Program-made: the position numbers and the translations under genes
In this document: positions 111 through 27,364 of the stretch, one piece after another
How the letters are laid out: the number at the start of each line of letters is the position of its first letter
How positions within the stretch are numbered: position 1 is the first letter of the stretch
Virus record (IMG/VR): IMGVR_UViG_3300009034_000021
Span: 1-64,000 of that record
Source of the DNA: an uncultured virus (IMG/VR IMGVR_UViG_3300009034_000021)
Taxonomy: Duplodnaviria > Heunggongvirae > Uroviricota > Caudoviricetes
DNA: 64,000 nt
Strand: one strand, 5' to 3'
Notes under the pieces: generated by a model
The model's database searches: none
What the model was told of the DNA's origin: nothing
Seen by the model: the letters and a program-made list of their open reading frames with translations, nothing else

Positions 111-470
111 TTGTTGGTACTCGTCGTCTCTCCCGCCCTGGCCGACAATGGCGAGGCCATCCCATCCTTCGACGAGGCGCTGATCTACGCCAGTAGCAAA
201 GCAGGCATTCCCATCATAGCCGGTTTTGTCATCTCGCTATTGCTGGACTACTGGAAAGATTACGCCGGTCTGACCACGGCACAAAAACGTGCTTTGTATG
301 CTGGTTTTTGTCTGGTTATACCGGTCAGTGCGGCTACGTTGCGCGGTGCACTGGGTTACACGCCGTGGACATTTGATCCGCTGTATTGGCACGCGCTGTG
401 GTGTGGTGTGGCGGCGGCTATCGCCGGAACGCTGATGCATCTGAAAGTCAGACGTGCGGCAAATCAATAA
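111..470 (+). CDS. Membrane protein (3-4 TM, holin-like); true start probably ATG 43 via a 1-nt shift in an A5 run
   Basis: Hydrophobic segments. AAGGAG + ATG at 43 is out of frame by -1 with a signal-peptide-like upstream extension. Confidence 0.55.
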   Translation: MLVLVVSPALADNGEAIPSFDEALIYASSKAGIPIIAGFVISLLLDYWKDYAGLTTAQKRALYAGFCLVIPVSAATLRGALGYTPWTFDPLYWHALWCGVAAAIAGTLMHLKVRRAANQ

Positions 471-724
471 TGACCGAAACTGTCATCACTTTTGACGGCC
501 ATGAAGGTAGTCGTCTTGCCTGTCCGGTCATCAACGTCTGGAATGATTACGATGACCGCTGGGGCAAAGGCATCGCCTTTGGCGTGAAACATGGTAGCAC
601 TGGTGTTCTATTAGAGCGAAAAGGTGATGCCTGCAAGGTGCGCGCCGGGGATAAAGTCGGCTGGCTGACGTTTTACTTCATCAAGGAGCTGAAGCAGGAA
701 TGGCAAGCCGAGAGAGAAACATAG
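470..724 (+). CDS. Small SH3b-like protein
   Basis: TAATG stop/start coupling at 468-472. The ...KVRAGDKVGWL pattern is typical of SH3-like domains. Confidence 0.5.
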   Translation: MTETVITFDGHEGSRLACPVINVWNDYDDRWGKGIAFGVKHGSTGVLLERKGDACKVRAGDKVGWLTFYFIKELKQEWQAERET

Positions 725-793
725 TCGTGGATATTCGCCTTGGCGGATTAGCCAATGTATACGGGGAATAGGTTGAAAACTGAAGTGGAAGAA

Positions 794-1052
794 CTTTCAA
801 TGCTAAGATCTGATTTTAGACAGTTGCAACCAAAGTTTTCTTGCGCGTTTTCGCCACCGCCATTGTCCTTTCAATGCTAAGATCTGATTTTAGACAGTTG
901 CAACCCGCAATGCAACGCGATGCACAGATAGACTGATAATCGCTTTCAATGCTAAGATCTGATTTTAGACAGTTGCAACCCGCTCGGATTTAAAACAAAG
1001 TTCGTTGACTCTTCACTTTCAATGCTAAGATCTGATTTTAGACAGTTGCAAC
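794..1052 (+). CRISPR. CRISPR array: 4 identical 37-nt repeats CTTTCAATGCTAAGATCTGATTTTAGACAGTTGCAAC and 3 spacers (37, 38, 36 nt)
   Basis: Exact repeats at 794-830, 868-904, 943-979 and 1016-1052; unique spacers at 831-867, 905-942 and 980-1015. Confidence 0.97.
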
Positions 1053-1079
1053 CCGAACTCAAACCACAAGTTCTTGGCA

Positions 1080-1120
1080 TTGACGCAACTGGAGCCGCTG
1101 GATATGGTATAACCCATATC
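1080..1120 (+). promoter_or_regulatory. Candidate sigma70 promoter between the array and the anti-repeat, overlapped by a 7-bp inverted repeat
   Basis: TTGACG(1080-85)-17 bp-TATGGT(1103-08), or alternatively TGG-TATAAC. Palindrome GATATGG-tataac-CCATATC at 1101-1120. Confidence 0.5.
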
Positions 1121-1167
1121 GCGAGTGGTCGCAAATCGTTTTTTGTACAAAAATACGGCAGATTTGC

Positions 1168-1460
1168 GAAATCGAAATCTTAGCATTGAGAGCAGCCTCA
1201 GTCACCAGCAGAGTTTGCCGCCTGCTGATGGGACTACGTTGCGAGGTAAAGTTAAAATACATTACCAAGACCAAATGGTCGCGATATGTGACGCACTCCG
1301 GGGTGCTCCCTCAGCTCCGGACTCTGCAACTGATAGTGGCAGACAATTGCGAAAAAGCACGAAACGCGCTATCAGACGTGCTGGCCTCGTGACATTGGCG
1401 AGGGGGACCATTACGGCGCACATGCCGGTCAAGCACTCCTTGACAATTCGTGTGCAAAAG
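1168..1460 (+). ncRNA. omegaRNA/HEARO-like scaffold beginning with an anti-repeat (tracrRNA-like)
   Basis: 1177-1192 ATCTTAGCATTGAGAG pairs with repeat nt 1-16 (one U-G). It is followed by omegaRNA-type blocks AGCCTCAG..GACTACGTTG, CACTCCGGGGTGCTCCCTCAGCTCCGGACTCTG and ACATTGGCGAGGGGACCATTAC, directly upstream of iscB. Confidence 0.85.
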
Positions 1461-1467
1461 GAACGAA

Positions 1468-2760
1468 ATGGTTTATGTACTGCATCAGGACAATTCACCA
1501 TTGATGCCGACCAGTCCAGCGAAAGCAAGGCATTTACTGAGAGACAGTAAAGCAAAGTTGGTGAACGTGGAGCCATTTACAATCCAGTTGATGGTTCCGA
1601 GCAGTAAGCATGTTCAGCCTGTGATCGTTGGTGTAGATCCAGGCGCAAGTAAAGCCGGCTTTGCAGCAATCGGCAACGGAAAAGTGCTTTATCAAGGTGA
1701 GGTCGCCCTGCGTACAGATATTTGCTACAGAGGCAAGGACGGCAATTACAAGGGCAGAATGCCAACGAGGGCTATGTATCGTCGAAACCGCCGTGGTCGC
1801 AAATGTCGCTATCGTGCACCAAGATACAAAAATCGTGCAGCCAGCAGACGGAAGGGTAGACTTCCGCCGAGTATTCAAAGTCGGAGCGATACCACCGTCA
1901 AAGTTGCCAAGTATATTGCTGGTTTTTTGCCGGTGAGCGAGATAATAATGGAGGTAGCCAACTTTGACACGCAGGCGATGCGAGCGGGCCACAAATTGCC
2001 GAATTGGGCTTATCAACGTGGCGAATTATATGGCCAGGAAAATGTCAAGATGTACGTTCGGGCTAGAGACAAATACACTTGCCAATATTGTGGCGAGGTT
2101 ATGCCAAAGCGATTGGAAGTAGATCACATCATTCCTCGTGCAAAAGGCGGGACATTGACGCCTGATAATTTGGTGACATCCTGCCACGATTGCAATCAAA
2201 GAAAGGGCAATAGAACTGCTGAGGAATTCGGTTATCCTAAGATACAGCAGAAAGTCAAAAAGTCTTTAAAGGCCGCTGCTCATACACAAGCAGGCAAGAA
2301 TGCAACATTACGGGGACTTGCCAAAATAGCACCTGTAATGTTGACCTATGGATACATTACTAAACTCAATAGAATAAAAATGAGGCTACCAAAAACTCAC
2401 TTTTATGACGCGGTGGTCGTTGCAGCACGAGGGAAGCCCACGAAATCTTTGGGCTGGTATGAAAAGATGAAAGCAGTATCGCGAGGACAAAGACAGCAGT
2501 ACAAAGCCAATCCATCTAAAGGCCATGTTTTCAGAAAGGCTAGACTGCCTTACGAAGTTTTTGGCTTTCGTATGTGGGACAAAGTTCAATTGCCTAATGG
2601 TATTATTTGTTTTATAGGAGCAAGACGTCAGTCTGGTAGCTTTAGAGTTAAGGATATTGATGGGCACGGGATTGGAAATATTACGTACAAGAAACTCAAG
2701 TTAGTTGAAAGGGCTAAAACGCTGCTGAAAATCACAGAAAGGTTGGCAAATGACTACTAG
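1468..2760 (+). CDS. iscB: IscB RNA-guided endonuclease (PLMP, RuvC-I/II/III, bridge helix, HNH)
   Basis: N-terminal SPLMPT, RuvC-I VGVDPG, Arg-rich helix RRNRRGRKCRYR, RuvC-II MEVANFD, HNH CQYCG..EVDHIIP..NLVTSCHDCN, RuvC-III THFYDA. SD AAGGA before ATG 1468. Confidence 0.95.
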   Translation: MVYVLHQDNSPLMPTSPAKARHLLRDSKAKLVNVEPFTIQLMVPSSKHVQPVIVGVDPGASKAGFAAIGNGKVLYQGEVALRTDICYRGKDGNYKGRMPTRAMYRRNRRGRKCRYRAPRYKNRAASRRKGRLPPSIQSRSDTTVKVAKYIAGFLPVSEIIMEVANFDTQAMRAGHKLPNWAYQRGELYGQENVKMYVRARDKYTCQYCGEVMPKRLEVDHIIPRAKGGTLTPDNLVTSCHDCNQRKGNRTAEEFGYPKIQQKVKKSLKAAAHTQAGKNATLRGLAKIAPVMLTYGYITKLNRIKMRLPKTHFYDAVVVAARGKPTKSLGWYEKMKAVSRGQRQQYKANPSKGHVFRKARLPYEVFGFRMWDKVQLPNGIICFIGARRQSGSFRVKDIDGHGIGNITYKKLKLVERAKTLLKITERLANDY

Positions 2761-3904
2761 ACATAAAGTCGGCTGGCATGTCGGAAATGAAAATATCCCG
2801 TTCGCCAAAGGTCAAAAGTCGGTTGTTCGTGCCGTCCCACCGGCTGCGCTGACTTTCATCACCGGTGAAGGATTCCAGCCTGATCACATGCGCTGGGTTC
2901 TGAATGAAGTCAACCCCGACTGTCATTTTTTCTTTAGACCATATTTTGTCCCCAGCAACAAACCACTTGACTATCAGAATTATCTCAATGCAGTTGAAAG
3001 CCTCATCGCCCAGCCGACGTGGGACTTCATCCCTGAACCACAGCGCCACCTACAAATCTTCAACGAACAAAATATGCCGCGTGATTCTCAATGGGAGGGC
3101 TTTGGCGCTTTCGCAGACGATATGAGGCGGTTCAACGATTGGTTCTGTCGTGGCTATGACCAGCTCAAGGCCGTCAACCCGACTTTCAAAATAGGCTGGA
3201 CGCCTCTCACGCCTGGCAACCGTGATGTATACTTTGAGGGCGATCCTGAGGATGTACCCTACTACATGCATGGGTCCGAAGCGGCTAACCCCAATGCGAC
3301 CTCTAGAGACATTCAGCGGGCCATCAAGTCTGGCCCATGCTACGAGTCGCTGATGAAAGCCGACGAGTACCTGGCCCATATTTACGTCGTTAACGACGCC
3401 GGACACCAAATCTACCAGCCTTGGGGCGGGCTGCGATGGCACGAGTACGAAAAGTACCTGCCCAAACCGATGGACATCTGGATAACCGAACTCGGCATCC
3501 AACACGGCTCGTGGGGCGCATGGTTTAACTTACTCAATCGGTATCCGCAGGTCAAGGGTACGTCCATCTGGCGCTTGGGCCACGAAATCAAATCGGCGGC
3601 AAACCCGGCGGTGCAGGAGATACACAATTATCTGGAGGGCTCACCCCCCACTCCGGAGCCTGCACCGCCGGCCACTTCTGTTGAAGAGCAAATCAGGGAT
3701 TCAGCCTGGCGTAGAGTCGGCGTTCGTTATAACCCTGAGGCGGCCTTTGCCCTCTACGCCAGGCTAGAACAACTCGGCGCACCTCTGTCCGATGAATATG
3801 ACGAGACCATAGACGACACGACGTTTCGTATCCAACCGTTCGTCGGCGGCGTCGTCGTGGCTGAGGTGGGCCAGTGGGACAAGGTCAGTCATCTGGAATG
3901 GTAA
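2750..3904 (+). CDS. Glycoside hydrolase-like TIM barrel with a C-terminal LGFP-like cell-surface binding repeat (endolysin candidate)
   Basis: Clan GH-A-like IFNEQN and IWITELG motifs; Pro-rich linker; LGAPLSDE..QPFVGGVV repeat. Confidence 0.55.
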   Translation: MTTRHKVGWHVGNENIPFAKGQKSVVRAVPPAALTFITGEGFQPDHMRWVLNEVNPDCHFFFRPYFVPSNKPLDYQNYLNAVESLIAQPTWDFIPEPQRHLQIFNEQNMPRDSQWEGFGAFADDMRRFNDWFCRGYDQLKAVNPTFKIGWTPLTPGNRDVYFEGDPEDVPYYMHGSEAANPNATSRDIQRAIKSGPCYESLMKADEYLAHIYVVNDAGHQIYQPWGGLRWHEYEKYLPKPMDIWITELGIQHGSWGAWFNLLNRYPQVKGTSIWRLGHEIKSAANPAVQEIHNYLEGSPPTPEPAPPATSVEEQIRDSAWRRVGVRYNPEAAFALYARLEQLGAPLSDEYDETIDDTTFRIQPFVGGVVVAEVGQWDKVSHLEW

Positions 3905-4380
3905 ACCAAGATCTGCCAACAAATGCCAATGAAATACTGGCTAGCGCCACGCCAGATCAAATTAAGTGGGTAGTGGCTCGTTTGACTAGCAAAACGGATC
4001 GAGAGGCTGCTAAATCAATTGGTGTTCATCCATCTACTGTCAGCAAGTGGCCCAACAAAGCTAAGCTTTATGAGGCTGTTAGTATTCTACTCCGTGAGCC
4101 AGTTGAGACCGCCTTAAAAATTTTGCAAGAGGCAGCGATAGATGCAGCCAACGTTTTGGTGGATGAATTAGGGCACAAAAACAAACTACGTGCCGCTGAT
4201 AGCATCTTAGATCGAATTGGTCTGCGAGGAGTGCAAAAACAAGAAATCAGCGGGCCTGGTGGTGGACCCCTCGTGATAGGAAACGTCACCCTCAATGACA
4301 AACAACGCGCTGAGGCCGTCCAGCAACTACTCGGCCAATTTCCTGAAATCGCTGCTGGAGGCTTACCTGAAACCGAATAA
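3898..4380 (+). CDS. terS: Terminase small subunit
   Basis: HTH (DREAAKSIGVHPSTVSKW), C-terminal KQEISGPGGGPL, immediately upstream of TerL. Confidence 0.75.
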   Translation: MVNQDLPTNANEILASATPDQIKWVVARLTSKTDREAAKSIGVHPSTVSKWPNKAKLYEAVSILLREPVETALKILQEAAIDAANVLVDELGHKNKLRAADSILDRIGLRGVQKQEISGPGGGPLVIGNVTLNDKQRAEAVQQLLGQFPEIAAGGLPETE

Positions 4381-6910
4381 TGCATTGTGGCTTCCTTTGC
4401 CGGGACCACAATTGGATGCACTCGTTTCGCCGGCCGATGAACTATTTTTCGGCGGAAGTGCCGGCGGGGGCAAACTCCTGAGCGTCGATGCCGTGGTCTG
4501 GACCCCATTTGGCCCTAAGCGTCATGGCGAGTTAGCGGTTGGTGATCAGGTGTGTAATCCTGATGGCAGCATTGCTCGTGTAATCACAGTGAGCCATTAT
4601 CGGAATGTGCCTCTATATCGGGTGACTTGCATAGATGGTGCTTCTGTATTGGCCGGAGCCAATCATAATTGGTTGGTGAAGATTGCCAGCGTGCGATTCA
4701 AGGCTCAACGTAGGATGTTCAACAATGAATCTAATTCGTTTGATGATCCTATAATACGAGCACGGGTAATGACGACCGCTCAACTCAAAGAATGTGTTGA
4801 TCGCGCTTATGAAGCTCAGCGGCAGGGCAAGCGACCTTATTGGCCTTTGCTTCCATTGACTCAGCCGGTCACCATGACAGTGAGCCATCGTTACCCTGAT
4901 GGGGTGTGGCCGATTGATCCCTATGTGCTTGGTGTTATTTTGGGTGATGGGCATATTGTAAAAAAGGTAAGTTTGACCACGTCCGATTTGTCAATCTCGG
5001 ATGCATTTACACGGGAAATGCATCGGTTAGGCGCGAGGGTTGTGCGTGATGATAGAGAAGGCAATGCAGCTTGGCAACTCAGGGTCAATGGTGCCACTGG
5101 AGTTGTACGGGCCCTACAGAAGTTAGATTTACAAGGTTGCCGTTCAGAATCCAAGTTTGTTCCTGAATCCTATAAGCGTGCCTCGGTGGACATGCGATGG
5201 GCGATGTTACAGGGTTTAATGGATACAGATGGCACCGCCGATTTCCGTGGACATTGTTCATTCTGTAGTGTGTCAAACAAGCTCGCGCTAGATGTCCAGT
5301 GGTTGGCTCGCAGTCTTGGATTTAAGGCTACTTTGTTTGAGAAAGAACCATTTTATCTCGGCGATGATGGACGCAGAATACATTGTCAATTGGCATATCA
5401 AGTTTATATCCAAGGAAAGGATACGGCGCGTTTGTTCAGACTGGAGCGCAAAAGTTCTCGTTGTCGTCCGTATAATGGTGGTTTCAGTCAGCCAATGCGT
5501 CGTGTGGTTGGAGTGGAGCTTGAGGATGAAAGCAATGCAGTATGCATTGGAGTTGATCATCCCAATGGACTTTATCTTACCGATGATTTTATCGTCACTC
5601 ATAACACTGACCTTTTGTTAGGCACGGCGATGCTGGCCCATAAGAAATCGATCATCTTCCGTCGTGAGCACGCCCAACTTACCGGCGTGGATAGTATTAT
5701 TGAGCGCAGTCGGGAATTGCTCAATGACGTGGCACGGTTCAACGGTCAAACTAATATATGGCGGGATATTCCCGGCGGCCGGATGCTAGAGTTTGGGGGT
5801 GTTCAACGCGAGCACGACACGAACAAATACAAGGGTAAATCGCACGATCTCAAAGCCTTTGATGAGGTTTCCGAATTTACTGAGTCTCAGTACCGGTTCT
5901 TAATTGGCTGGGCCAGGACGACGGACCCAAATCAACGTGTTCGGGTCATCGCCACGGGCAATCCACCTACCCACGTTAGAGGAGAATGGGTAATAAAATA
6001 CTGGGGCCCTTGGTTAGACAGCCAACACCCTCACCCAGCACGGCCTGGTGAACTGCGCTGGTTCGCTATGATAGACGGCGCAGACGTGGAGGTTGAGAAT
6101 GGCGAGCCATTTCAGCATAATGGTGAAATCATTAAGCCCAAAAGTCGGTCGTTCATACCAGCGAAATTGAGTGATAATCCCTATCTAGCGAATACCGACT
6201 ATGCCACCGTACTTCAGAACCTGCCTGAGCCGCTGCGTTCACAGTTGCTCTATGGCGATTTCAATGTCGGGGTAACAGACGACCCATGGCAGGTGATACC
6301 GACCGAATGGGTCAGACTGGCCTTTGAGCGATGGAAACAGCGAAAAAAACCAGATGTGCCACTTGCCGCCATTGGCGCCGACATAGCACGTGGCGGAAAA
6401 GACCAACTGGTTATCAGCGAGCGATATGATAACTGGTTCGCGCCATTAAAAAAGTATCCTGGCAAATCTGTCCTGGATGGGCCAGCAGCGGCGGCCCTAG
6501 TCGTCAAAATTCCAGGCAGCGCCGGCGCGTGCATCAACGTAGACGTGATAGGCATTGGTTCATCGGCCTACGATTCGTTAGCCAGCCAAAATTCAAACGT
6601 CGTGGCTCTCAACTTTTCTGAGGCGACGACAGCCAGGGATAGAAGTGGCCGGCTGAAAATGCGCAATGTCAGGGCCGAGGCATATTGGGGGATGCGCGAG
6701 GCATTAGACCCTGAGCTAGGCGACGACTTGGCTTTGGCGCCCGACAACGAACTCTTGGCCGACTTGACGGCGCCGAGATGGAAGTTAACGACGTCAGGTA
6801 TACTAATTGAAGAGAAAAAGGCCATTGCCGAACGGTTGGGCCGTTCGCCTGATTGTGGCGACGCGGTCGTCATGGCGCGCATGGGACAGAGGGGAGTATT
6901 TTTTGGCTAA
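4295..6910 (+). CDS. terL: Terminase large subunit containing an intein
   Basis: Walker A GGSAGGGK/T split by the intein, Walker B AFDEVSE, ATGNP coupling motif, nuclease GADIARGG..D, C-terminal RSPDCGDA. Confidence 0.93.
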   Translation: MTNNALRPSSNYSANFLKSLLEAYLKPNNALWLPLPGPQLDALVSPADELFFGGSAGGGKLLSVDAVVWTPFGPKRHGELAVGDQVCNPDGSIARVITVSHYRNVPLYRVTCIDGASVLAGANHNWLVKIASVRFKAQRRMFNNESNSFDDPIIRARVMTTAQLKECVDRAYEAQRQGKRPYWPLLPLTQPVTMTVSHRYPDGVWPIDPYVLGVILGDGHIVKKVSLTTSDLSISDAFTREMHRLGARVVRDDREGNAAWQLRVNGATGVVRALQKLDLQGCRSESKFVPESYKRASVDMRWAMLQGLMDTDGTADFRGHCSFCSVSNKLALDVQWLARSLGFKATLFEKEPFYLGDDGRRIHCQLAYQVYIQGKDTARLFRLERKSSRCRPYNGGFSQPMRRVVGVELEDESNAVCIGVDHPNGLYLTDDFIVTHNTDLLLGTAMLAHKKSIIFRREHAQLTGVDSIIERSRELLNDVARFNGQTNIWRDIPGGRMLEFGGVQREHDTNKYKGKSHDLKAFDEVSEFTESQYRFLIGWARTTDPNQRVRVIATGNPPTHVRGEWVIKYWGPWLDSQHPHPARPGELRWFAMIDGADVEVENGEPFQHNGEIIKPKSRSFIPAKLSDNPYLANTDYATVLQNLPEPLRSQLLYGDFNVGVTDDPWQVIPTEWVRLAFERWKQRKKPDVPLAAIGADIARGGKDQLVISERYDNWFAPLKKYPGKSVLDGPAAAALVVKIPGSAGACINVDVIGIGSSAYDSLASQNSNVVALNFSEATTARDRSGRLKMRNVRAEAYWGMREALDPELGDDLALAPDNELLADLTAPRWKLTTSGILIEEKKAIAERLGRSPDCGDAVVMARMGQRGVFFG
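4475..5605 (+). mobile_element. Intein (377 aa) with LAGLIDADG homing endonuclease, class 3-like
   Basis: Inserted between P-loop K and T. Block B HNW, block C LGVILGDG, block E LQGLMDTDG, block F VCIGVD, C-terminal VTHN/T. Confidence 0.92.
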
Positions 6911-7086: not shown

Positions 7087-8667
7087 ATGATCGTTGACGA
7101 GATTAAGGCAATTCAGAAACGCGAGTCATCTCAGCTCTGGCATGGCTACCCGGCCAAGGCCGCCCCGTTCTCTTGGCCCACCTGGAGAGAGGGTCGCCCG
7201 CAATGGAAACTCATAGACTACCAGGCCTACGTTGAGGAAGGTTTCAACCTCAACAGCCTAGTCTATGAGAGTATCATGTACAAAGTGCGGGCACTGCAAC
7301 AGGTGCTACTGCGGGCCTACAAAGGAAGCATGGAGCATCCTGAGTTGCTGGATGTCGATCATCCATTGGCGAAACTCATAGCGCGGCCTAATCCACATCA
7401 AAGTTTCGTTGAATTCCAGGGCCAATCAATCGTCTACTTGAATCTATCAGGCAACAACTATCTTTTGATGGACAGGCCGAAAAGTGGCGGTTTGCCAGAG
7501 GCGATGTACAGTTTACGACCAGATAGGGTGTTTGTTGTACCTGGGAAGCAAAAACGCGGTCAGGCCGGACTCAGAGGCTATCTATACGTCCCAGAAGGGA
7601 AATCGGCGTGGTCGGGCTGGGATGCGCGTCGGCGGGTGGACGCGTTACGAGAAGGTGAGGCCGTACCGATTGCTCCACAAGACATAATGCATACCAAGTT
7701 GCCCAACCCCGGCGATCCGCTGGAAGGCCTGGGCGACGGTTTGCCACCTCTCTCGCCCAGCGCGCGTTCGGTAGACGTGGATAACAAAGTGACACATTTT
7801 CTCAAGTTGTTCTTCGATAAAGGCGTCATCGTACCTGGCCTGTTACAATTTGAATCACCCCTGACCGATCCTATCATGTCCAGGGTTCGCGAGCGCTGGA
7901 AGGAAATTTACGGTGGCTACGAAAGCTGGGCTGAGGAGATTGGTATACTTGACCAGGGCGGAAGTTACAAACGTATTGGGTTGACTTTCGAGGAGATGGG
8001 CTTTGGACAACTGGACGAACGCAACGAATCCCGTGTGTTGGGCCCGTTCGGTATACCGCCGATTTTGGTAGGGACTCGTATTGGCCTGGCTCATGCTACT
8101 TATTCCAATTATCAGATAGCTCGTCTGGCTTGCTGGGAAGACACCCTTGTGCCAGAAGTGATGTTGTTTGAGGTGGATTATCAATATTATCTCCAGGGCG
8201 ACGATGGAGAGTTCGTGGCCTATGACTACAGCAAAGTCCCAGCGTTCAGGGAAATCCGCAACGCGGCCTGGGAGCGGGCGAGCGGTGGCGTGAGTGGTGG
8301 ATGGGTGACGGTAAACGAAGGACGTGCAGAGGCAGGCTTGCCAGCAGTAGAAGGTGGCGATGTATTCTTGCGTGGTGTGACGGTGATACCTGAGCCGGCG
8401 GAAACGCAGGAATTTGCCGAACCAACGACGGAACGAACCGAAGAAGGCGCAGCGGAAGCCGAGGCCGATGAACGTAAAGCATGGCAACAGATAAAGGCTG
8501 GGGATAATGGGTCTGACAGCCAGACAAAAGCAACGATTCCTAACGGGCTTCGACCGCCGAGCGTTGGGCTGGGAGAAGGCGTTCGCCAGAGCAATGGAGA
8601 AGGCGATGTTGGCCAACAAGCGGGCGTTGCTGAAATTGTTGCGGGCGGCCAAGTCGTTCAAAGCTGA
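7087..8667 (+). CDS. Phage portal protein (HK97-like)
   Basis: Follows TerL. RPNP..S, YLNLSGNNY, LRPDRV, FGIPPILVG and TVNEGRAEAGLP motifs. Confidence 0.9.
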   Translation: MIVDEIKAIQKRESSQLWHGYPAKAAPFSWPTWREGRPQWKLIDYQAYVEEGFNLNSLVYESIMYKVRALQQVLLRAYKGSMEHPELLDVDHPLAKLIARPNPHQSFVEFQGQSIVYLNLSGNNYLLMDRPKSGGLPEAMYSLRPDRVFVVPGKQKRGQAGLRGYLYVPEGKSAWSGWDARRRVDALREGEAVPIAPQDIMHTKLPNPGDPLEGLGDGLPPLSPSARSVDVDNKVTHFLKLFFDKGVIVPGLLQFESPLTDPIMSRVRERWKEIYGGYESWAEEIGILDQGGSYKRIGLTFEEMGFGQLDERNESRVLGPFGIPPILVGTRIGLAHATYSNYQIARLACWEDTLVPEVMLFEVDYQYYLQGDDGEFVAYDYSKVPAFREIRNAAWERASGGVSGGWVTVNEGRAEAGLPAVEGGDVFLRGVTVIPEPAETQEFAEPTTERTEEGAAEAEADERKAWQQIKAGDNGSDSQTKATIPNGLRPPSVGLGEGVRQSNGEGDVGQQAGVAEIVAGGQVVQS

Positions 8668-10285
8668 AGTCAGTTGGTCAAAAGTCGAGCGTGATTGGGA
8701 TGAATACTGGACTCAATTCGCCGGCGAGGAATGGCGAAGGGCATTCATGCCAGTGCTACGAGGGATAATCACGGCACAGGATGAAAGCATCAACACTACG
8801 TTTGGGATAGAGTTTAACGTAAGGAACCTGTTCAGCGAGGCATACCTGCACGATACCGACTTTGGCTATTGGTTTGAGAATTACGTAGATACATTTTCTA
8901 AACCAGTACTAGAGACGACAAAGAAAGACCTGCGGGACTTGCTGTTGCAAGCACAACAGAACGGCTGGACGATTGAGCAGATGCGAGAACAACTTGACCT
9001 GAATTGGGACAAGTATCTCGATCCAAAATTCACGTTGGAAGGTCGTGGGTTGACCGAAGAAGAACGGGATTGGTTCGAGGAACGCAATCCACGTTACCGT
9101 AAAGACTTGATAGCGCGTGACCAAACGATGCGGGCCAGCAACACGGGTGGGTATTATCTCTATCGCGCCTGGGGCGCGCCGATGAAAGAATGGCTGGCGA
9201 CGGGAGACGCTCGCACGAGAGATACACATTTGGCAGCATGGCAGATGTACAGCGAGGGAGGCAATCCGGGACCGATCCCGATGGAGATACCGTTCAAGGT
9301 CGGCGGGTTCAGTTTGATGTACCCTGGCGATCCGTCTGGGCCGCCGCAGGAGTCAATCCAGTGCCGGTGTACGACGCTGCCATTCTATCCTGAGTTTGCG
9401 GGGACGGAAGAGGAGGTGGCACAGGCGCGGGCGGGGATGGAGGCGGAGATTGGGCGGCGGGAGGGGGAACAAAGGAGGCACAGGAGAGGAGAACCTTGGC
9501 GTGGAGTAGCAGGACAAATACCAGTAGGGGAAGATCATACTACTGAGTTCATGGAAAAGTGGTTTACGGAAGGATTAGAAATAACACAGAATTGGCGCGA
9601 TGCCCCAATTAGCGCCCAGGGACGTGCCAAAGATGAGTTAGTCAGGGCGATTTCCGAGCGAAGCGGCATACCATATGAGAGCGTGAACAAAATTATTAGA
9701 CAGTGGGCACAGACCTCCAATGACGATGACATGCGATCCTTGGCGATGCAAAAAGCAGCAGTGGAACACTTTGGAGTTCCACTATCTGATTTTTCAAAAG
9801 GCAAAATTGATCTCATTTTACAAAAGGTGAATGATTCGTTGGGATATGGTGTTACTTTTGAAGAATTATATGAATTGGGGATTGAGCAACAACGTATACG
9901 TCCTAGATACTCTCCTTTGATGGAAAATGAGCAATTAAAAACAGTTTTGGGAGCAATGTACGAGAATACCCAAGAACGATTAGCGGCAGCGGGATTTGGG
10001 CCAGGAACTACTATCAGAATGAGGCGGGGCGTATACTTGCCAACGGAGGTTACGAAGGATTGGGAAGTAGGAGATACTGTACCTATCGAGGGCAACGCGA
10101 TTGAAAGCTGGTCAATAGGCCCAGATATTTCGGCGCGTTTTGGTGGCACGATTTTTGAAATGGACGTGCCGGTGGAGATGATCGTCGGCTCGGCGCGCTC
10201 TGGCTATGGTTGCTTAACTGAGGGGGAATTTGTCATCCTGGGCAGCACGCCGAGTGAGGCAAAATTACTGAGAGTTGGAAAATGA
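8507..10285 (+). CDS. MuF/SPP1 gp7-like minor head protein with a C-terminal ADP-ribosyltransferase-like domain
   Basis: MuF motifs KEWLATGDARTRDTH and YPGDPSGPPQESIQCRC; C-terminal R-G / S-W-S / E-x-E triad. Confidence 0.85.
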   Translation: MGLTARQKQRFLTGFDRRALGWEKAFARAMEKAMLANKRALLKLLRAAKSFKAEVSWSKVERDWDEYWTQFAGEEWRRAFMPVLRGIITAQDESINTTFGIEFNVRNLFSEAYLHDTDFGYWFENYVDTFSKPVLETTKKDLRDLLLQAQQNGWTIEQMREQLDLNWDKYLDPKFTLEGRGLTEEERDWFEERNPRYRKDLIARDQTMRASNTGGYYLYRAWGAPMKEWLATGDARTRDTHLAAWQMYSEGGNPGPIPMEIPFKVGGFSLMYPGDPSGPPQESIQCRCTTLPFYPEFAGTEEEVAQARAGMEAEIGRREGEQRRHRRGEPWRGVAGQIPVGEDHTTEFMEKWFTEGLEITQNWRDAPISAQGRAKDELVRAISERSGIPYESVNKIIRQWAQTSNDDDMRSLAMQKAAVEHFGVPLSDFSKGKIDLILQKVNDSLGYGVTFEELYELGIEQQRIRPRYSPLMENEQLKTVLGAMYENTQERLAAAGFGPGTTIRMRRGVYLPTEVTKDWEVGDTVPIEGNAIESWSIGPDISARFGGTIFEMDVPVEMIVGSARSGYGCLTEGEFVILGSTPSEAKLLRVGK

Positions 10286-11741: not shown

Positions 11742-11798
11742 AGCGGCATTTTTCTGGACAGCGTAACACCGTCCAAAAAAGTGCCGCTTTTTTATTTT
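11742..11798 (+). terminator. Intrinsic terminator-like hairpin
   Basis: AGCGGCATTTTTCTGGAC / GTCCAAAAAAGTGCCGCT stem followed by TTTTTATTTT. Confidence 0.65.
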
Positions 11799-14700
11799 AT
11801 GATGGAAATTGCCAAAATTACACCGGAATCTATACGAGAGGAGAGCAACGAGGCTCTATTGAACTTGCATCGTCATTTGCATGGTTTATGGTCTCAGCAC
11901 TTCGCTGATGGCGAGAGGACTACAAACGGTCTGACGAAAGAAGACTTAGTTAATGCCCATGTATTCGTGCGTGATGATATGGCACGACGGAAGATGCAAC
12001 ATGCAAGCGAACCACGAAATGGTTTGGATAAAGCGACACGTGAATTGAGCCGTAAGGGACTGGACGACGTGCTGAGCGAATCGGCAGAGGACACAATACT
12101 TGTCCCGGCCATCGTCACCATCACCGGTTCGGTGGGCGAGGGGCGCGAGAAGGCAGAAGACCTCGATGTACTGATACGGGCTGACCGGATCGAACAGGCA
12201 GGGAATCCCGGCTTTTTGATACGGGCAGAGGATATCGAGTTGCCAGTGCGAAAGCGATTTGATCCTGAGAAGACTGGGCTTGAAGTTCATTGGAATACAA
12301 ATCCGCAGGGTCCGCACGCGGATTATCTGCACATGGCCGATCTGGTATTACGGTGGCGGAGCCCGGTGGAACAAGTTTCGGTCAAGGCTGGCCGCCGTGT
12401 GCGTCAGGTGCGATTGGCACAGATACAAGGATTATTAACACGACTCAAGGATTTAGAACAAGAGATCGAAGGTTTTCTAGAGTGGGCCGAATATCGCGAT
12501 GTGCCGTTGATTACAGTCGTAGACGGACATTACATCCAACGTGAGGGAAAGCAGACACCGCTTGTACCGACAGAGTTCAAGCCAGCGATAGACGAGAAAT
12601 GTGTCTGTCCGGAATGTAAACACGAAAGTGGGCCGGCGGAAGGCAAAACTTGCATTGAGACGAAATGTCCAGAGTGTGGAGCATTGATGAAAGCCAAGGA
12701 GCCCACAGCGGTAGAGCCGGCGAAAGCAGCCGAGATAAAAGTCGTCGCTCCCGGCAAGCGATACTCAGTAATGAAGCCAAGCATGACAGGCGTGACGGAG
12801 TATTTTTCAACGGATGAACTGTGGGGCTGGACGCAAAAGAAATTGGAAGGCGATCATGCGCTATTGGGCAGTCCGAAGATAGACGGTTTTAGGGCAGTCA
12901 TCTCAAAGGATGGCGACACCTCAGTGTGGTTTGAAGATAGCAAAGAAACGAAGACGCCGCCAGGTATGCCTGAGTTGACGGGGCCGTCGTTCGTGATCGA
13001 GGGTGAATTCACGGCAAAACGCGGCGATAAATGGTTGGCCCGGACACAACTGGCCGGCGTCGTAGCAGGAAAGACGGAAGCGAGGCCACATTTTTGGCTA
13101 TACGACCTGCTTTATCACGATGGTGAGGACGTCAGCCAACGACCTTTCACCGAACGCCTGACTCTATTGAAAAAACTCAAATTGCCAGAACGCCACTTTA
13201 CGGTACTGGCTCAGCGTTCGGTACGCGGGCAACGAGACTTAGGGGCAGTGGGTAAATGGGCTGCTGGCCGGCCGCTATCAGAAGGACTGTTTCTGCGGGT
13301 TGCTGATGCAAAGTATGCATTTGGATCCAGTGACAGTTGCGCCAAACTCAAGACGGTGGCGGAACTAAAAGTCCAAGTCATTGATTCAGAGCGCAAGAAA
13401 AACGGAATCGTGTACCACGTTGGCCTTCGCGAGCCAGGCAAGTTCAGCAATGTGGCTGGAGAACTACTGGACTTGGGTAACACGTTCGTCGGCCCAGATC
13501 AGAGAGTAAAGGCCGGCGATACACTGAACGTTGTCTGTGAGGAATTAGTCATCGGCAGCAAGGACAGTAGACCAATTCTGCTCTGGGGCAAACCGACTGT
13601 GCAGGGCCCTGATAAATCACGACCGGCGTATACGACTGAACAGGCTATCAGCCTGGCACGGCGAAAGCACATCCTCAAAGAGGAGATAGCCACATCAGAA
13701 ACAAAAGCGGCAAAGTTGGAGGAGACACGAGGAGAACGGGCTGGGCGATCCTGGAAAGATAACTGGGCTAAATTAGTGATAAAGGGTGAAGGTAAATTCA
13801 TCCTGCACGGGCATTTTCCGGCCCTGACGGAAGAAGAATCAAAGTGGGACCTTCAAAAGTTGCTGGCGGCCAACAAGCAATATCATACTGATTTGAGGAA
13901 CGAGGCGCCGAGGCCGAATGGAGCATGGGGTTTCACGAACTATGAGGGGCGTGGCAGTAAGGTAGGGCCAAAGAGTACGCGGTTGTACAAAATGCCATCA
14001 AACAAACCGATGCGCGGTAGTTTTAAATTAGAACAGCCTCGCGCCTGGTTAACACATGCCAAGAACAAGCCAGAAGTGCACGAAGACGTCGGAGTCACAG
14101 GGAAGGACTGTGCAAAATTTTTTGCTTTGGACTGGGGACGTTACAAATTGACTTTCGCACGCGAGCATGCCTTCGAGATAATTTACGACGGCGCAAAAGG
14201 CGTGATGAACGGACGATATCAGATCAATTACGTCCCCGTAGGAGATGAGCGCGCATGGATGATATCACGGCCAGAAACGCAGGATGAGATTTACGCCGAC
14301 GAACACAAACTCGACACAGTACGCGATGACGTAAGGAGAAAAGGCCAGCAATGGTTGTTCTGGCGTGAGTCGTTGGGTGCTCCGCTACAGAAAATAAATG
14401 TGCGGAGTAGCAAGGAGAGCAAAATGCATGAAATGAATTTGAACGGTGAACTCACTGAGTTGGAGCTTCTGGATTTAGGCAGAACGGTGAAAGCCGCAGC
14501 CACACTCAGGTCTGCGCTGGAGGCGGCGTTAAAACGAATCGATAAAGAAGATGCCGAAGGCGCGATTGGACGGTTGCGGGCTGCGTTAGACAAAGTTAAT
14601 GATTACGGCTATGGCTATGGCTCACCGACCGGCGAGAAGGCAGTCAGTGCGAGTGCGATCAAAAAAGAGTTGAATCGTTGCATCGCTGGACTGGAGGATG

Positions 14701-15485
14701 ACGAACCTGACTATGGTAAAGCAAAAACCGTCCTTCAGAAATTGTTGGGTCGGCTGGGTTATGGCTCGTCTGATAAGGCGACTTCAGTAGATGCACTGAA
14801 GAAACAACTTATGCAGGTCATAGGTGAACTCAATCGTGACGAGCCGGATATGGAAAAAGTGGCCAGTGCTCTGCAAGGAGCCTTGGGCAAACTTGGCAAA
14901 AGTGAAGCGAAGGCAGCCGAATTAACAGCGGTAAAGATGCTGCGTGAGGAAAATGGCGGTGCGGTAGTCGGCGGGCACCTGTTGTTGTGGGGTAGCCCAG
15001 GGCAGAAGGACCTAGACGGCGACTACTTTACGCCGGAAACCAATCTGTGGCTTGATGAATACAAGTCAGTGCCGGCGATGTTTCATCACGGGCTTGATGC
15101 GAAAATCGGCCTGACGGCCATCGGCAGACGGCTTAAGGCAGCCAAAGATGACATTGGCGTATGGGTCGAAGATTGGTTGGATAAAAGCCACAAATACTGG
15201 GCTTTCGTCGAGAAGCTGTTAAAAGCCGGAGCATTGTATTATTCACCCGGATCGGCGCCACATTTGGTAGAACGGGAAACGGATGGGCGGCTAAAATCTT
15301 TCGCCGTGGTAGACGACACCCTGACACCCATCCCGTGCCAATATCGATTACGTCCCGTATCCGAAATCCAGGCGTCCTACAAGGCGGTTGGATTGGAGTT
15401 GCCAGATGTAGCGTTGGACAAAGGTGGACTGAAAGAAGAAATCGAAAAAACCGAGTCGGAACTGAAACGACTCATGGAGGTGTAA
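11799..15485 (+). CDS. Head polyprotein: nucleotidyltransferase-like + Zn ribbon + ATP-dependent ligase + LigD-like 3'-phosphoesterase + helical repeats + prohead protease
   Basis: ITGS..EDLDVL; CVCPEC..CPECG; ligase motifs PKIDGFR, IEGEF, LYDLL, EGLFLR, AKLK; FILHGH..HTDLRNE; C-terminal DLDGDYF..FHHG..YSPGS protease-like domain directly before the MCP. Confidence 0.8.
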   Translation: MMEIAKITPESIREESNEALLNLHRHLHGLWSQHFADGERTTNGLTKEDLVNAHVFVRDDMARRKMQHASEPRNGLDKATRELSRKGLDDVLSESAEDTILVPAIVTITGSVGEGREKAEDLDVLIRADRIEQAGNPGFLIRAEDIELPVRKRFDPEKTGLEVHWNTNPQGPHADYLHMADLVLRWRSPVEQVSVKAGRRVRQVRLAQIQGLLTRLKDLEQEIEGFLEWAEYRDVPLITVVDGHYIQREGKQTPLVPTEFKPAIDEKCVCPECKHESGPAEGKTCIETKCPECGALMKAKEPTAVEPAKAAEIKVVAPGKRYSVMKPSMTGVTEYFSTDELWGWTQKKLEGDHALLGSPKIDGFRAVISKDGDTSVWFEDSKETKTPPGMPELTGPSFVIEGEFTAKRGDKWLARTQLAGVVAGKTEARPHFWLYDLLYHDGEDVSQRPFTERLTLLKKLKLPERHFTVLAQRSVRGQRDLGAVGKWAAGRPLSEGLFLRVADAKYAFGSSDSCAKLKTVAELKVQVIDSERKKNGIVYHVGLREPGKFSNVAGELLDLGNTFVGPDQRVKAGDTLNVVCEELVIGSKDSRPILLWGKPTVQGPDKSRPAYTTEQAISLARRKHILKEEIATSETKAAKLEETRGERAGRSWKDNWAKLVIKGEGKFILHGHFPALTEEESKWDLQKLLAANKQYHTDLRNEAPRPNGAWGFTNYEGRGSKVGPKSTRLYKMPSNKPMRGSFKLEQPRAWLTHAKNKPEVHEDVGVTGKDCAKFFALDWGRYKLTFAREHAFEIIYDGAKGVMNGRYQINYVPVGDERAWMISRPETQDEIYADEHKLDTVRDDVRRKGQQWLFWRESLGAPLQKINVRSSKESKMHEMNLNGELTELELLDLGRTVKAAATLRSALEAALKRIDKEDAEGAIGRLRAALDKVNDYGYGYGSPTGEKAVSASAIKKELNRCIAGLEDDEPDYGKAKTVLQKLLGRLGYGSSDKATSVDALKKQLMQVIGELNRDEPDMEKVASALQGALGKLGKSEAKAAELTAVKMLREENGGAVVGGHLLLWGSPGQKDLDGDYFTPETNLWLDEYKSVPAMFHHGLDAKIGLTAIGRRLKAAKDDIGVWVEDWLDKSHKYWAFVEKLLKAGALYYSPGSAPHLVERETDGRLKSFAVVDDTLTPIPCQYRLRPVSEIQASYKAVGLELPDVALDKGGLKEEIEKTESELKRLMEV

Positions 15486-15486
15486 T

Positions 15487-16770
15487 ATGAACTGGAAAGA
15501 AATGTTGGCACAAGCCAACAAACTGATGGAGGAGGTCAAGGCAGTTGATGTGGCCGAGGCGTCCGCCGAAGAGCTAGAGCAAATCGGGGAGAAACATGCC
15601 GAGGCAAAGGCTTTGATGGCGAAAGCCGGACAGCTTAAGGAAATTGAACAGACTGCGCTTGAACTCCAGCAAACAGTAGAGGCAGAACAGCAAGGTGATT
15701 CACCGGTTGAGGGCAGCGAGTTCAAAACCTGGGGCGATTTCCTGTTTGCTACGTGGCTTTGGACGGCGCATCAGAAACGTGATCCACGTCTCAAAGTTTT
15801 CAAGGACGATGCACCGTCGAGTAAACCAGAAGTCAAAGACATGGTAGAGAGCACCGGCGCGGCGGGTGGATTCCTCGTGCCTGTGGAGTTCCTGGCCGAG
15901 CTTCAGGCGGCTATGGCTGAAAACGCTATCGTCAGACCACGAGCGACCATCCTGCCGATGCGACGCAGGCAACTTGATGTGCCGGTGCTTGACCAGACCG
16001 GGACCACGGCTGGCATACCTCATTGGTTCGGCGGAATGCAGTTTTACTGGGCTGAGGAAGCGCACGAAAAGACATTGAGCGATCCGACGTTCCGCAAAAT
16101 CTCGCTGGTGGCACACAAGATGATCGGCTACACGCGAGCCAGTGATGAATTGCTGGATGATTCGGCCATCAGCCTGGAGGCGTTTCTGAGTGGACCGCTT
16201 GGTTTTGCTGGCGGTGCGACGTGGATGGAAGACTACGCTTTCTTGCAAGGCACCGGTGCCGGGCAGCCGCTCGGCGTCATTCCCGCTACGGCCACGATCA
16301 ATGTCGCCCGTGCGACGGCGGGCACGATCACTTACGCAGACATTTGCAACATGTTAATGAATTTCCTGCCGACCGGTAAAGGTGTGTGGGTCATCAGCCA
16401 AAGTGCGCTGAGTACTGTGGTGCAAATCTCTGGCCCAGCGGGAAATCCTAGTTACGTCTGGCAGCCAAACGCACGGGAAAAGACTCCCGCTTATCTATTT
16501 GGCTATCCTGTCATCTGGTCGGAAAAGTCACCGGCTATGGGTACCGCTGGCGACATCCTGCTAGCCGACTTTCAGTATTATCTTATCGGGGATCGCCAGG
16601 CGACGACAGTAGAATCGACCAAATTCGACCGCTGGCGATATGACGAGACTAGCTGGCGCATGGTGCACCGCGTGGATGGCCAACCGTGGTTAAGCCAACC
16701 CCTAACCTATCAGGACGGCGCGACGCAAGTGAGTCCATTCGTCATTCTGGCCGGTGCCGGGGCGAGCTAA
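15487..16770 (+). CDS. Major capsid protein (HK97 fold, with N-terminal delta domain)
   Basis: Coiled-coil N-terminus; GGFLVP, WAEEA, SDELLDDS, FLQGTGAGQPLG, LFGYPV, LADFQYY, RVDGQP. Confidence 0.95.
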   Translation: MNWKEMLAQANKLMEEVKAVDVAEASAEELEQIGEKHAEAKALMAKAGQLKEIEQTALELQQTVEAEQQGDSPVEGSEFKTWGDFLFATWLWTAHQKRDPRLKVFKDDAPSSKPEVKDMVESTGAAGGFLVPVEFLAELQAAMAENAIVRPRATILPMRRRQLDVPVLDQTGTTAGIPHWFGGMQFYWAEEAHEKTLSDPTFRKISLVAHKMIGYTRASDELLDDSAISLEAFLSGPLGFAGGATWMEDYAFLQGTGAGQPLGVIPATATINVARATAGTITYADICNMLMNFLPTGKGVWVISQSALSTVVQISGPAGNPSYVWQPNAREKTPAYLFGYPVIWSEKSPAMGTAGDILLADFQYYLIGDRQATTVESTKFDRWRYDETSWRMVHRVDGQPWLSQPLTYQDGATQVSPFVILAGAGAS

Positions 16771-18760: not shown

Positions 18761-19402
18761 ATGCTTGGAGAGATAATGGACAACGATACACCTCAGTTAT
18801 ACGATGAAGGCGAAGAGCAATGGAAGACCAAGTTGCACCTCGGCTGCGGCAATATCTATTTGATAGGCTACGAGAATATCGACGTAGTCGGTGTTCTGGC
18901 CGATGAGCGTCCTGATTTAGTAGAGGCGAACAGGACGAATATCAAGAGTTATTACGGGCGGCGGACGGCATACACCGATATTCACCATATTGTGCCAAGG
19001 GCAGGTTATGTCGTAGACCGGCGAATGTGCATGACAAATCTTGGGAATGAGATTGGTTCAGTCAACAAAATTGTGTGTATTCAGGCATTAGAACATCTAC
19101 AACCTAATGATGGTGTAAGAGCGCTGACGCATTGGCATGATCTACTCAAACAGGATGGAATATTGATGATATCTGTCCCTGACACGTCTGAGACCGTGGA
19201 AATGTTGCTCGACGAATGCACTAGGGATTTCGCTATCCAACACCTGGCTGGGACACGAACGGATCAACATAGTTATCACCGTAATCATTTTACACGGCTA
19301 TGTTTGTCCGCTCTTTTAACGTTGCATGGTTATGGAGAAATTGAATTCTTGTCAAACTTTCATCGTTATCCAGCCATTGTGGTAAGGGCGAAAAGATTAT
19401 AG
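18761..19402 (+). CDS. Class I SAM-dependent methyltransferase
   Basis: KLHLGCG, ALEHL, LKQDGILMISVPD. Confidence 0.8.
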   Translation: MLGEIMDNDTPQLYDEGEEQWKTKLHLGCGNIYLIGYENIDVVGVLADERPDLVEANRTNIKSYYGRRTAYTDIHHIVPRAGYVVDRRMCMTNLGNEIGSVNKIVCIQALEHLQPNDGVRALTHWHDLLKQDGILMISVPDTSETVEMLLDECTRDFAIQHLAGTRTDQHSYHRNHFTRLCLSALLTLHGYGEIEFLSNFHRYPAIVVRAKRL

Positions 19403-19439
19403 TAGACAAGACTATTTTTGAAAGGAGTGATAAGATACA

Positions 19440-27232: not shown

Positions 27233-27364
27233 ATTGCGACTGATTTAGAGAGGGAATCAGATTTTTGATCTTCAGGGATACGGCCCGTATTGAGTCGTGT
27301 CCCTTCAAATTCATGACATCAGATGAGGCAAAGTTATGTCATCAATTACTGAGTAAGGAAAATA

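Follow-up and report, generated by a model that had tools for sequence, protein, structure and literature searches.

The window analysed here is a stretch of 64,000 nt, the first part of an IMG/VR virus record of 71,298 nt, rated complete by CheckV. Terminase, portal, capsid, tape measure and tail proteins were annotated by Pfam and PHROGs scans and mark the record as a tailed phage. Adjoining the packaging genes of this complete 71-kb phage lies a locus composed of a short CRISPR array, a non-coding RNA and a gene for the nuclease IscB. The features, with coordinates in the window, are the following:

43-470 and 470-724, plus strand: open reading frames upstream of the array
742-793, plus strand: region before the first repeat, a weak remnant of the promoter found before the arrays of relatives
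794-1052, plus strand: CRISPR array of four identical 37-nt repeats and three spacers
794-830, 868-904, 943-979 and 1016-1052, plus strand: repeats R1 to R4
831-867 (37 nt), 905-942 (38 nt) and 980-1015 (36 nt): spacers
1053-1128, plus strand: gap between the array and a tracrRNA-like RNA, with a promoter-like site inside
1129-1169, plus strand: conserved hairpin, the 5' end of the tracrRNA-like RNA (alignment A2)
1158-1192, plus strand: anti-repeat, complementary to almost the whole repeat
1179-1414, plus strand: omega-RNA or HEARO scaffold (Rfam RF02033), joined to the anti-repeat
1468-2760, plus strand: IscB, 430 aa (Pfam and PDB matches)
3874-4377: small terminase
4295-6907: large terminase
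7087-8664: portal
15487-16767: HK97-type capsid protein
34211-36856: tape measure protein

The array contains four copies of the 37-nt repeat CTTTCAATGCTAAGATCTGATTTTAGACAGTTGCAAC, which agree with 0 mismatches, separated by differing spacers. Dinucleotide shuffles (n=100) did not yield a repeat match in any case, and no further copy of the repeat was found in the 71,298-nt record. The reverse complement of the repeat, GTTGCAACTGTCTAAAATCAGATCTTAGCATTGAAAG, begins with GTTGCAAC and ends with ATTGAAAG (it may also be written GTTGCAAC...CATTGAAAG). An earlier note on this DNA had described identical repeats, spacers of 36-38 nt and just these ends of the reverse complement, and the sequence bears out all three; position 1167, where that finding was drawn to end, falls inside the anti-repeat (1158-1192). 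The repeat at the 794 end, R1, is the odd one, and differs from the others in its flanking bases only: the three nucleotides after the repeat are CCG for R2 to R4 and CAA for R1, and in the related locus L009 the first repeat is preceded by C instead of A. The odd R1 would weakly fit a trailer at the 794 end and is too thin a sign to decide the polarity of the array. The spacers of the window and its relatives do not match the phage itself or the relatives' loci examined. Likewise, no protospacers were found in the relatives' loci, or in PLSDB and INPHARED, which were searched by way of longer queries.

The gene at 1468-2760 codes for a protein that matches the Pfam families RRXRR (PF14239, 1.6e-52, residues 2-185) and HNH (PF01844, 1.4e-16, residues 205-249), as well as the PDB entries of TbaIscB (2.6e-43), HfmIscB (5.5e-40) and OgeuIscB (1e-30). 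It combines the traits by which IscB proteins are recognized, i.e., an RRXRR/PLMP region, a RuvC domain split by HNH, a length of about 400-500 aa and a scaffold upstream on the same strand. This scaffold matches the HEARO model RF02033 along its entire length (model positions 1-211 of 211) with 35.6 bits and an E-value of 4.2e-05, a score that does not reach the gathering score of 83, and it aligns with ten related 5' UTRs (alignment A2) at a mean column identity of 60%. The anti-repeat at its 5' end has a core of 16 bp, in which 1177-1192 pairs with repeat positions 1-16, and extensions of 7 bp and 4 bp. The predicted cofold of repeat and anti-repeat amounts to -30.7 kcal/mol, compared with -14.3 +/- 2.6 for 200 shuffled repeats, the best of which reached -21.1. 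An array beside the gene and an anti-repeat within the non-coding RNA are the marks of a CRISPR-associated IscB. Of the marks of a type II system, the locus has a 430-aa IscB in place of a Cas9 with a REC lobe, and Cas1 and Cas2 are absent from the 71-kb record. The layout, a spacer followed by a repeat whose 5' part pairs with the 5' end of a trans RNA, follows the order known from Cas9 systems.

A protein search with IscB retrieved dozens of relatives of 56-84% identity, all of them metagenomic, and a metagenome scan covered 80 of 483 loci, among which 11 had at least 57% IscB identity. Relatives in IMG/VR reach 37-38% identity at most and lack arrays. Three to four repeats of the window's family are present in L009 (82% identity), L011 (70%) and L012 (67%), with the conserved ends CTTTCAATG and GTTGCAAC/T on either side of a differing middle. 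The contig of L010 begins inside a repeat of the same family, L013 has the same type of tracrRNA on a contig that is cut upstream, and in L014 the sequence before the gene is just 37 nt long. L016, L017, L018 and L057 (57-63% identity) have no array and a one-piece omega-RNA; L018 and L057 sit among ordinary chromosomal genes. Finally, L015 (61%) features a different array with a 30-nt repeat, spacers of 32-33 nt and an anti-repeat directly after the last repeat. In a tree of 20 IscBs the array loci together with L013 and L014 form one subclade (7 of the 20 rows, support 81/99), which adjoins L015 and the array-less group of L016-L018 (97/94), found in chromosomal contexts; all of these fall within a clade supported at 100/100. 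Since one IscB subclade holds the array loci of this family, we conclude that its members owe the array to a single gain, followed by inheritance with the gene.

Within this subclade, anti-repeat and scaffold are conserved together with the array. The anti-repeat covaries with the repeat: in L011, the repeat reaches -38.0 on its own tracr region, whereas the four other tracr regions give -22.9 to -30.5. The cognate duplexes of L009 and L012 are just 2.4-2.7 standard deviations better than those of shuffled repeats, and another of the five tracr regions binds these repeats more strongly, a weak preference that is explained by the first 9 nt being identical everywhere.

Two of the relatives indicate the direction of transcription. 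In L011 a plus-strand promoter with a TG element (TTGACA-17-TACAAT, 11/12 positions) ends 44 nt before the first repeat, and in L012 a perfect one (TTGACA-17-TATAAT with TG, 12/12) ends 32 nt before it. In the window, the counterpart of this promoter is degenerate and no promoter was found at the scan threshold in 742-793; the motif ATAGGTTGAAAAC after the -10 position is common to the window and L011, as judged by eye. The pre-crRNA is probably transcribed from 742-793 or by read-through from the upstream plus-strand reading frames (43-470 and 470-724). On the strength of the anti-repeat, the HEARO match, the direction of the gene and the plus-strand promoters before the arrays of two relatives, the plus strand is likely the one that is read by IscB, opposite to the polarity that a class 1 array would have. 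This supports the earlier note in its view that IscB uses the other strand. RNA runs on record did not include any that contained the locus. One DNA run, in which 5% of the sampled words were present, yielded four small pieces, none of which covers the array.

The stretch between the array and the scaffold is occupied by elements of the plus strand: a promoter-like site, the conserved hairpin and the start of the anti-repeat. The promoter-like site, TTGACG (1080-1085) and TATGGT (1103-1108) at a distance of 17 nt, has 9/12 positions, which is chance level in the scan; by eye, TGgTATAAC lies at 1105-1113, and L009 has kept its TGGTAT. Some 76-80 nt, counted by eye, separate the last repeat from the hairpin in five of five loci. 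The hairpin itself, formed by TCGCAAATC (1129-1137) and GATTTGCGA (1161-1169), is conserved in the window, L009, L010, L011 and L012, and the contig of L013, which begins inside it, keeps the 3' strand. In predicted duplexes this 3' strand can alternatively pair with the repeat end GTTGCAA. The same region, 1053-1167, had been proposed as a leader, an assignment for which no support was obtained: the region is filled by plus-strand RNA elements, and 1053-1130, with a G+C content of 51%, is not AT-rich and is alike in the window and L009 only. We also considered 1053-1088 as a fourth, ancestral spacer common to the window and L009, and rejected it, because the stretch carries the promoter-like TTGACG or TTGATA, which otherwise explains the conservation.

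We regard the locus, with a probability of roughly 0.8, as the source of guide RNAs for a CRISPR-associated IscB that the phage encodes, judging from sequence and predicted RNA pairing. Accordingly worded as a mechanism, the array would be transcribed on the plus strand, the same strand as IscB, and a tracrRNA-like RNA would be made downstream, whose 5' part (1158-1192) is the putative anti-repeat and whose body corresponds to the omega-RNA scaffold (1179-1414). Each repeat of the pre-crRNA would pair with the anti-repeat, and the duplex may then be a substrate for a host RNase III, in the manner of type II systems. The resulting crRNA would consist of the 3' part of a spacer and the 5' part of the following repeat, and together with scaffold and IscB it would cut matching DNA beside a TAM. 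If a single transcript runs through, cis pairing of the last repeat is conceivable as well and would provide a built-in single guide. Array-guided DNA cutting by this IscB would most likely be directed at rival mobile elements. The array presumably arrived with IscB in the one subclade and was kept at three to four repeats.

A locus of this kind is not without precedent, since CRISPR-associated IscB was reportedly described by Altae-Tran et al. 2021 (Science 374:57). The closest parallel is DelIscB (PMC12660989), which uses a 16-nt guide and the TAM NAC and whose ncRNA combines spacers and repeats with an anti-repeat. DelIscB resembles the locus studied here in the small protein (457 aa, compared with 430 aa here), in spacers and repeats upstream and an anti-repeat joined to the scaffold, and in having no adaptation genes beside the locus; in contrast, clade and repeat differ, and the window locus resides in a complete 71-kb tailed phage. 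The repeat of DelIscB starts with GTTGTAGCC and pairs with the anti-repeat at that end (PMC12660989, supplement file 2). Compared with DelIscB the window array is turned round, because DelIscB pairs at its GTTGTAGCC start, whereas the GTTG end of the window's repeat is the far end. The motifs CTTTCAATG, CATTGAAAG and GTTGCAAC do not occur in the sequence tables of PMC12660989.

With canonical OMEGA IscB (RF02033), the locus shares the protein family and the RNA scaffold, and the sister loci L016-L018 and L057 represent the one-piece form. It differs from these in that the first RNA stem is split into array repeat and anti-repeat, and therefore several guides are usable. With type II CRISPR-Cas9 it has in common a spacer followed by a repeat that pairs with the anti-repeat at the 5' end of a trans RNA, and a nuclease gene downstream, whereas a protein of Cas9 size with a REC lobe, cas1, cas2 and csn2 are missing and the spacers measure 36-38 nt. 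HEARO nucleases have been reported in viral contigs (over 16% of contigs; PMC9755519). The kind of locus is already published; here it belongs to a new clade and sits in a phage, and the repeat has class-1-type ends on the strand that is not read by IscB. In a full-text search of the literature, no paper was found in which the arrays of IscB are connected with repeats of class 1 or with adaptation in trans.

The phage itself encodes no evident machinery for the acquisition of spacers. Cas families were found neither among 82 ORFs of the whole record (Pfam scan) nor among 60 ORFs (PHROGs scan), nor in the Pfam scan of IscB, and a six-frame search for Cas1 (PF01867) gave 0 matches in the record, although it did detect Cas1 in 7 of 14 control genomes. 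The whole 71-kb record is devoid of cas1, cas2, cas4 and cas6, which confirms that adaptation genes are absent, as the earlier note had stated for the window; in L011, cas genes are likewise lacking within 5 kb. A host among the Chloroflexota had also been suggested. This is not supported by the capsid, the nearest named relatives of which (60-61% identity) are MAGs labelled Gammaproteobacteria and Phycisphaerae, i.e., two different phyla. Against isolated phages, capsid and portal show at most 38% identity, spread over many hosts, and this comparison revealed no close isolated phage. For the ORF downstream of IscB, the relative that was found has that one gene in common and no synteny.

The arrays of the subclade appear to turn over. 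Within each array the repeat copies are identical (4/4, 4/4, 3/3 and 3/3), and between loci 23-31 of 37-38 positions agree. None of the ten spacers of the window, L009, L011 and L012 is common to different loci by BLAST, so that spacer content is not invariant across relatives; invariance had been named in the earlier note as a refuting outcome. Spacer lengths range from 27 to 38 nt across loci, and no spacer is duplicated within or between arrays. Homogenized repeats and unshared spacers together indicate that the units are made anew, and since the phage carries no adaptation gene, by a mechanism that is not phage-encoded: either something acting in trans or recombinational exchange. One spacer pair, window 905-942 and L011 4516-4551, shows a weak likeness, with an end-to-end alignment score of 24 compared with a null maximum of 18.5 on average and 22.1 at the 95th percentile (74 comparisons, 200 shuffles). 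This pair would weakly fit a slow rather than a fast turnover.

The resemblance to class 1 arrays is seen on the minus strand only, where the repeat has about 37 nt, a 5' end of the form GTTxxAAC, a 3' end of the form ATTGAAA(C/G) and spacers in the range of 35-40 nt. The exact 5' 8-mer GTTGCAAC opens CRISPR16 of A. variabilis, which belongs to the DR5 / type I-D family with 37-nt repeats, and ATTGAAAG closes CRISPR18 of the same species and family (Table 4, PMC4916379); class 1 repeats of S. solfataricus and P. furiosus also end with ATTGAAAG (tables, PMC3890593). In a set of 401 Cyanobacteriota genomes, long arrays of the form GTTGCAAC...GGGATTGAAAC are present, with 89 copies in genome G040, and the exact 5' 8-mer occurs in 37-nt arrays of G040, G046, G112 and G311. 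The start-to-start spacing of the cyanobacterial arrays is 68-83 nt, corresponding to spacers of 31-46 nt, a range that includes the 36-38 nt of the window. In G040 and G046 a conserved leader is located at the GTTG end and a shortened last repeat at the far end. The type of these cyanobacterial reference arrays rests on PMC4916379, because no Cas protein was detected among 30 proteins flanking two of them. That 37-nt repeats with such ends and spacers are found in type I-D arrays, as the earlier note had maintained, is borne out by the published families and the cyanobacterial arrays alike.

The likeness goes no further than the terminal 8-mers, the length of 37 nt and spacers of similar size. 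Across the whole repeat, 28 of 37 positions agree with the repeat of G040, whereas 500 shuffles average 20.1 and never exceed 26, but in the middle 21 nt only 13 match, where shuffles give 10.8 +/- 1.6 on average and 16 at most. The designation as a class 1-type array thus stands for ends, length and spacer size, and fails for the middle of the repeat, which is at shuffle level. The repeat RNA of the minus strand does not form a stable hairpin (-3.6 kcal/mol). A class 1 array would be identified by class 1 cas genes linked to it or by an identical repeat in an array of the host; neither was found in the phage or in the collections searched. The comparison of the repeat with host arrays, proposed in advance as a check, did not reveal such an array among the genomes, plasmids and virus contigs searched. 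In the 401 Cyanobacteriota genomes, no array with both ends occurs among the matches listed; those of G040, G046, G112, G311, G257 and G124 have another middle and end with GATTGAAAC or GATTGAAAA. In 401 genomes of Planctomycetota, 11 single matches with at most one mismatch and no array were found. The exact repeat has 0 matches in IMG/VR, where both repeat ends with a gap of 19-21 nt occur as 66 single matches and not as an array, and the same search in contigs of prokaryote genomes gave at least 120 single chance matches. BLAST searches of PLSDB with the array and of INPHARED with 700-1470 returned short chance matches only.

Both repeat ends also find an explanation in the helper RNA. For the 5' end, CTTTCAATG, the partner is CATTGAGAG in the anti-repeat, located directly before CAGCC, and at the same place the array-less sister group (L016-L018, L057) has GGTTGAC, which pairs with GTCAAC at the start of the omega-RNA. 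The cores TCAA and TTGA are common to both groups (by eye, alignment A2). The partner available to the 3' end GTTGCAA is TTTGCGA (1163-1169), a motif that forms the 3' strand of the hairpin in the free tracrRNA and that corresponds in the alignment to CTTGCGA in the second hairpin of the sister group. L011, moreover, has a short stretch from the start of a repeat, CTTTCAATGCC, that runs straight into the hairpin (ACAGTCGCAAATCG), similar to a cis-closed omega-RNA. Repeat and anti-repeat hence look like the first stem of the omega-RNA split in two, bearing in mind that these homologies consist of cores of 4-6 nt read by eye. The pairing with the helper RNA either accounts for the repeat ends without an integrase, or it accounts for the adoption of a class 1 repeat in antisense.

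These two options correspond to two origins of the array. The repeat may have arisen from the omega-RNA by tandem duplication of a guide and the 5' strand of the first stem, in which case the class 1 look would be due to convergence and new units would form by recombination or slippage, not by Cas1-Cas2. We hold this for a tentative possibility. It agrees with the position of the anti-repeat where the array-less group has GGTTGAC, with the common cores, the alignment and pairing of TTTGCGA, the fused repeat start of L011 and the varying spacer lengths; the shortness of the cores weakens it, an exact 37-nt unit with both canonical 8-mers is left unexplained, and slippage would copy spacers too, none of which is duplicated. 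Alternatively, a class 1 array of a host (type I-D or similar) was captured, which is possible; that, in addition, host Cas1-Cas2(-Cas4) extends it in trans at a leader on the 1053 side, in GTTGCAAC...ATTGAAAG orientation with IscB reading the other strand, appears rather unlikely to us. The shared 5' 8-mer and 3' end, the repeat length, the spacing and the whole-repeat identity above the shuffle maximum speak for capture, and so do the orientation turned round relative to DelIscB, homogenized repeats with differing spacers in the absence of a phage adaptation gene and, weakly, the odd R1. Against it stand the middle of the repeat at shuffle level, the missing minus-strand hairpin, the alternative explanation of both ends by conserved helper-RNA elements and the failure to find an array with both ends in the collections searched. 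Moreover, the putative leader is neither AT-rich nor conserved beyond L009 and holds plus-strand RNA elements, and cas genes are lacking within 5 kb of L011.

Archaeal viruses carry mini-arrays that lack cas genes and resemble class 1 arrays of their hosts. A precedent among phages is cyanophage N-1, which shares with the window a small array (4-5 repeats), the lack of cas1 and cas2, ends of the GTT...ATTGAAA type and a 37-nt repeat; its repeat matches host arrays over the full length, and host Cas proteins are the presumed users (PMC4916379), whereas in the window only the ends match, the effector is phage-encoded and the other strand is read. In favour of capture, N-1 shows that a cas-less phage array can resemble that of its host, and it likewise lends itself to a further reading, in which the array mainly serves a class 1 effector of the host: crRNAs of the minus strand would be loaded into Cascade or a type III complex, a use that has been suggested for phage arrays lacking cas genes, and the link to IscB would be secondary. 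This reading is highly improbable. The minus-strand repeat does end with ATTGAAAG, and a promoter-like site (9/12) runs on the minus strand from 1062 to 1035, but such sites are at chance level (2 found, 1.3 expected), and none lies beside the array in the relatives with strong plus-strand promoters (L011, L012). The conservation of anti-repeat and scaffold with the array across the subclade and the lack of a stable hairpin for Cas6 also argue against it. If minus-strand crRNAs were made, their 8-nt 5' handle would be AUUGAAAG.

The locus bears on the origin of Cas9 from IscB, which is still argued mainly from single loci. The subclade allows a direct comparison between sister lineages of 57-84% protein identity, array-less ones and others that bear an array and a split stem, one of the latter in a complete phage. 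Furthermore, the question of who adds the spacers can be tested on a compact and defined locus without adaptation genes nearby. If the repeat ends reflect the integrase of a host class 1 system, they would explain how a nuclease with a fixed guide becomes adaptive; if not, the locus would still be a compact, natural IscB of the crRNA/tracrRNA type with a repeat unlike that of DelIscB. In its most far-reaching form, which we consider improbable, an IscB subclade, some members of which are phage-borne, would live off the class 1 adaptation of hosts: Cas1-Cas2(-Cas4) would renew the mini-array in GTTGCAAC...ATTGAAAG orientation and IscB would read the antisense transcript, a use that would have been made possible by the likeness between the universal ATTGAAAG handle, read in antisense, and the 5' strand of the first stem of the omega-RNA (TCAA/TTGA core). 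Were this reading true, it would provide a route from a one-guide transposon nuclease to an adaptive system that has no adaptation gene of its own.

One spacer of the window's array (905-942) can be aligned over its full length with a spacer at 4516-4551 of L011, a metagenomic locus that encodes an IscB relative and carries an array of the same repeat family. About 23 of 36 positions match, with 3 gaps, and the alignment score slightly exceeds the 95th percentile obtained with shuffled controls. The two spacers could reflect homologous targets or an old common spacer.

At 4656-4680 of L011, a short repeat start (CTTTCAATGCC), located 67 nt past the last full repeat and out of register, is joined directly to the conserved tracr hairpin. 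This arrangement resembles an omega-RNA that is closed in cis where the array ends. The CRISPR-associated IscB of this locus is followed, 2 kb downstream, by a TnpB-like gene (8318-9496; OrfB_IS605 plus a Cas12f1-like TNB domain).

Within the window itself, several further genes stand out:

4295-6907: large terminase (871 aa), whose terminase parts are separated by a LAGLIDADG homing-endonuclease domain (residues 297-378)
11781-15482: 1234-aa protein, encoded between head-morphogenesis and capsid genes
18761-29142: run of genes for a methyltransferase, a glycosyltransferase, a sulfotransferase-like protein, an asparagine-synthase-like protein and an NAD-dependent epimerase
55424-56791, minus strand: N6/N4 DNA methylase fused to a ParB-like domain
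62168-62704, minus strand: stand-alone HNH endonuclease, the second HNH gene

The LAGLIDADG domain probably represents either an intein or an endonuclease insertion. Residues 365-524 of the 1234-aa protein form an ATP-dependent DNA ligase domain, outside of which the protein has no family match, and the gene run lies inside the structural module, flanked by capsid genes on one side and connector genes on the other.

A different array type is found in L015, a metagenomic locus whose IscB (537-1784) is 61% identical to that of the window. Unlike the window's array, the L015 array (1-300) comprises four repeats of 30 nt each with the 3' end GGGGGAAAC, separated by spacers of 32-33 nt. The anti-repeat begins only about 10 nt past the final repeat, and the final unit resembles a built-in single guide. 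The L015 array would be a second, independent gain of an array within the 100/100-supported IscB clade that includes the window's IscB.
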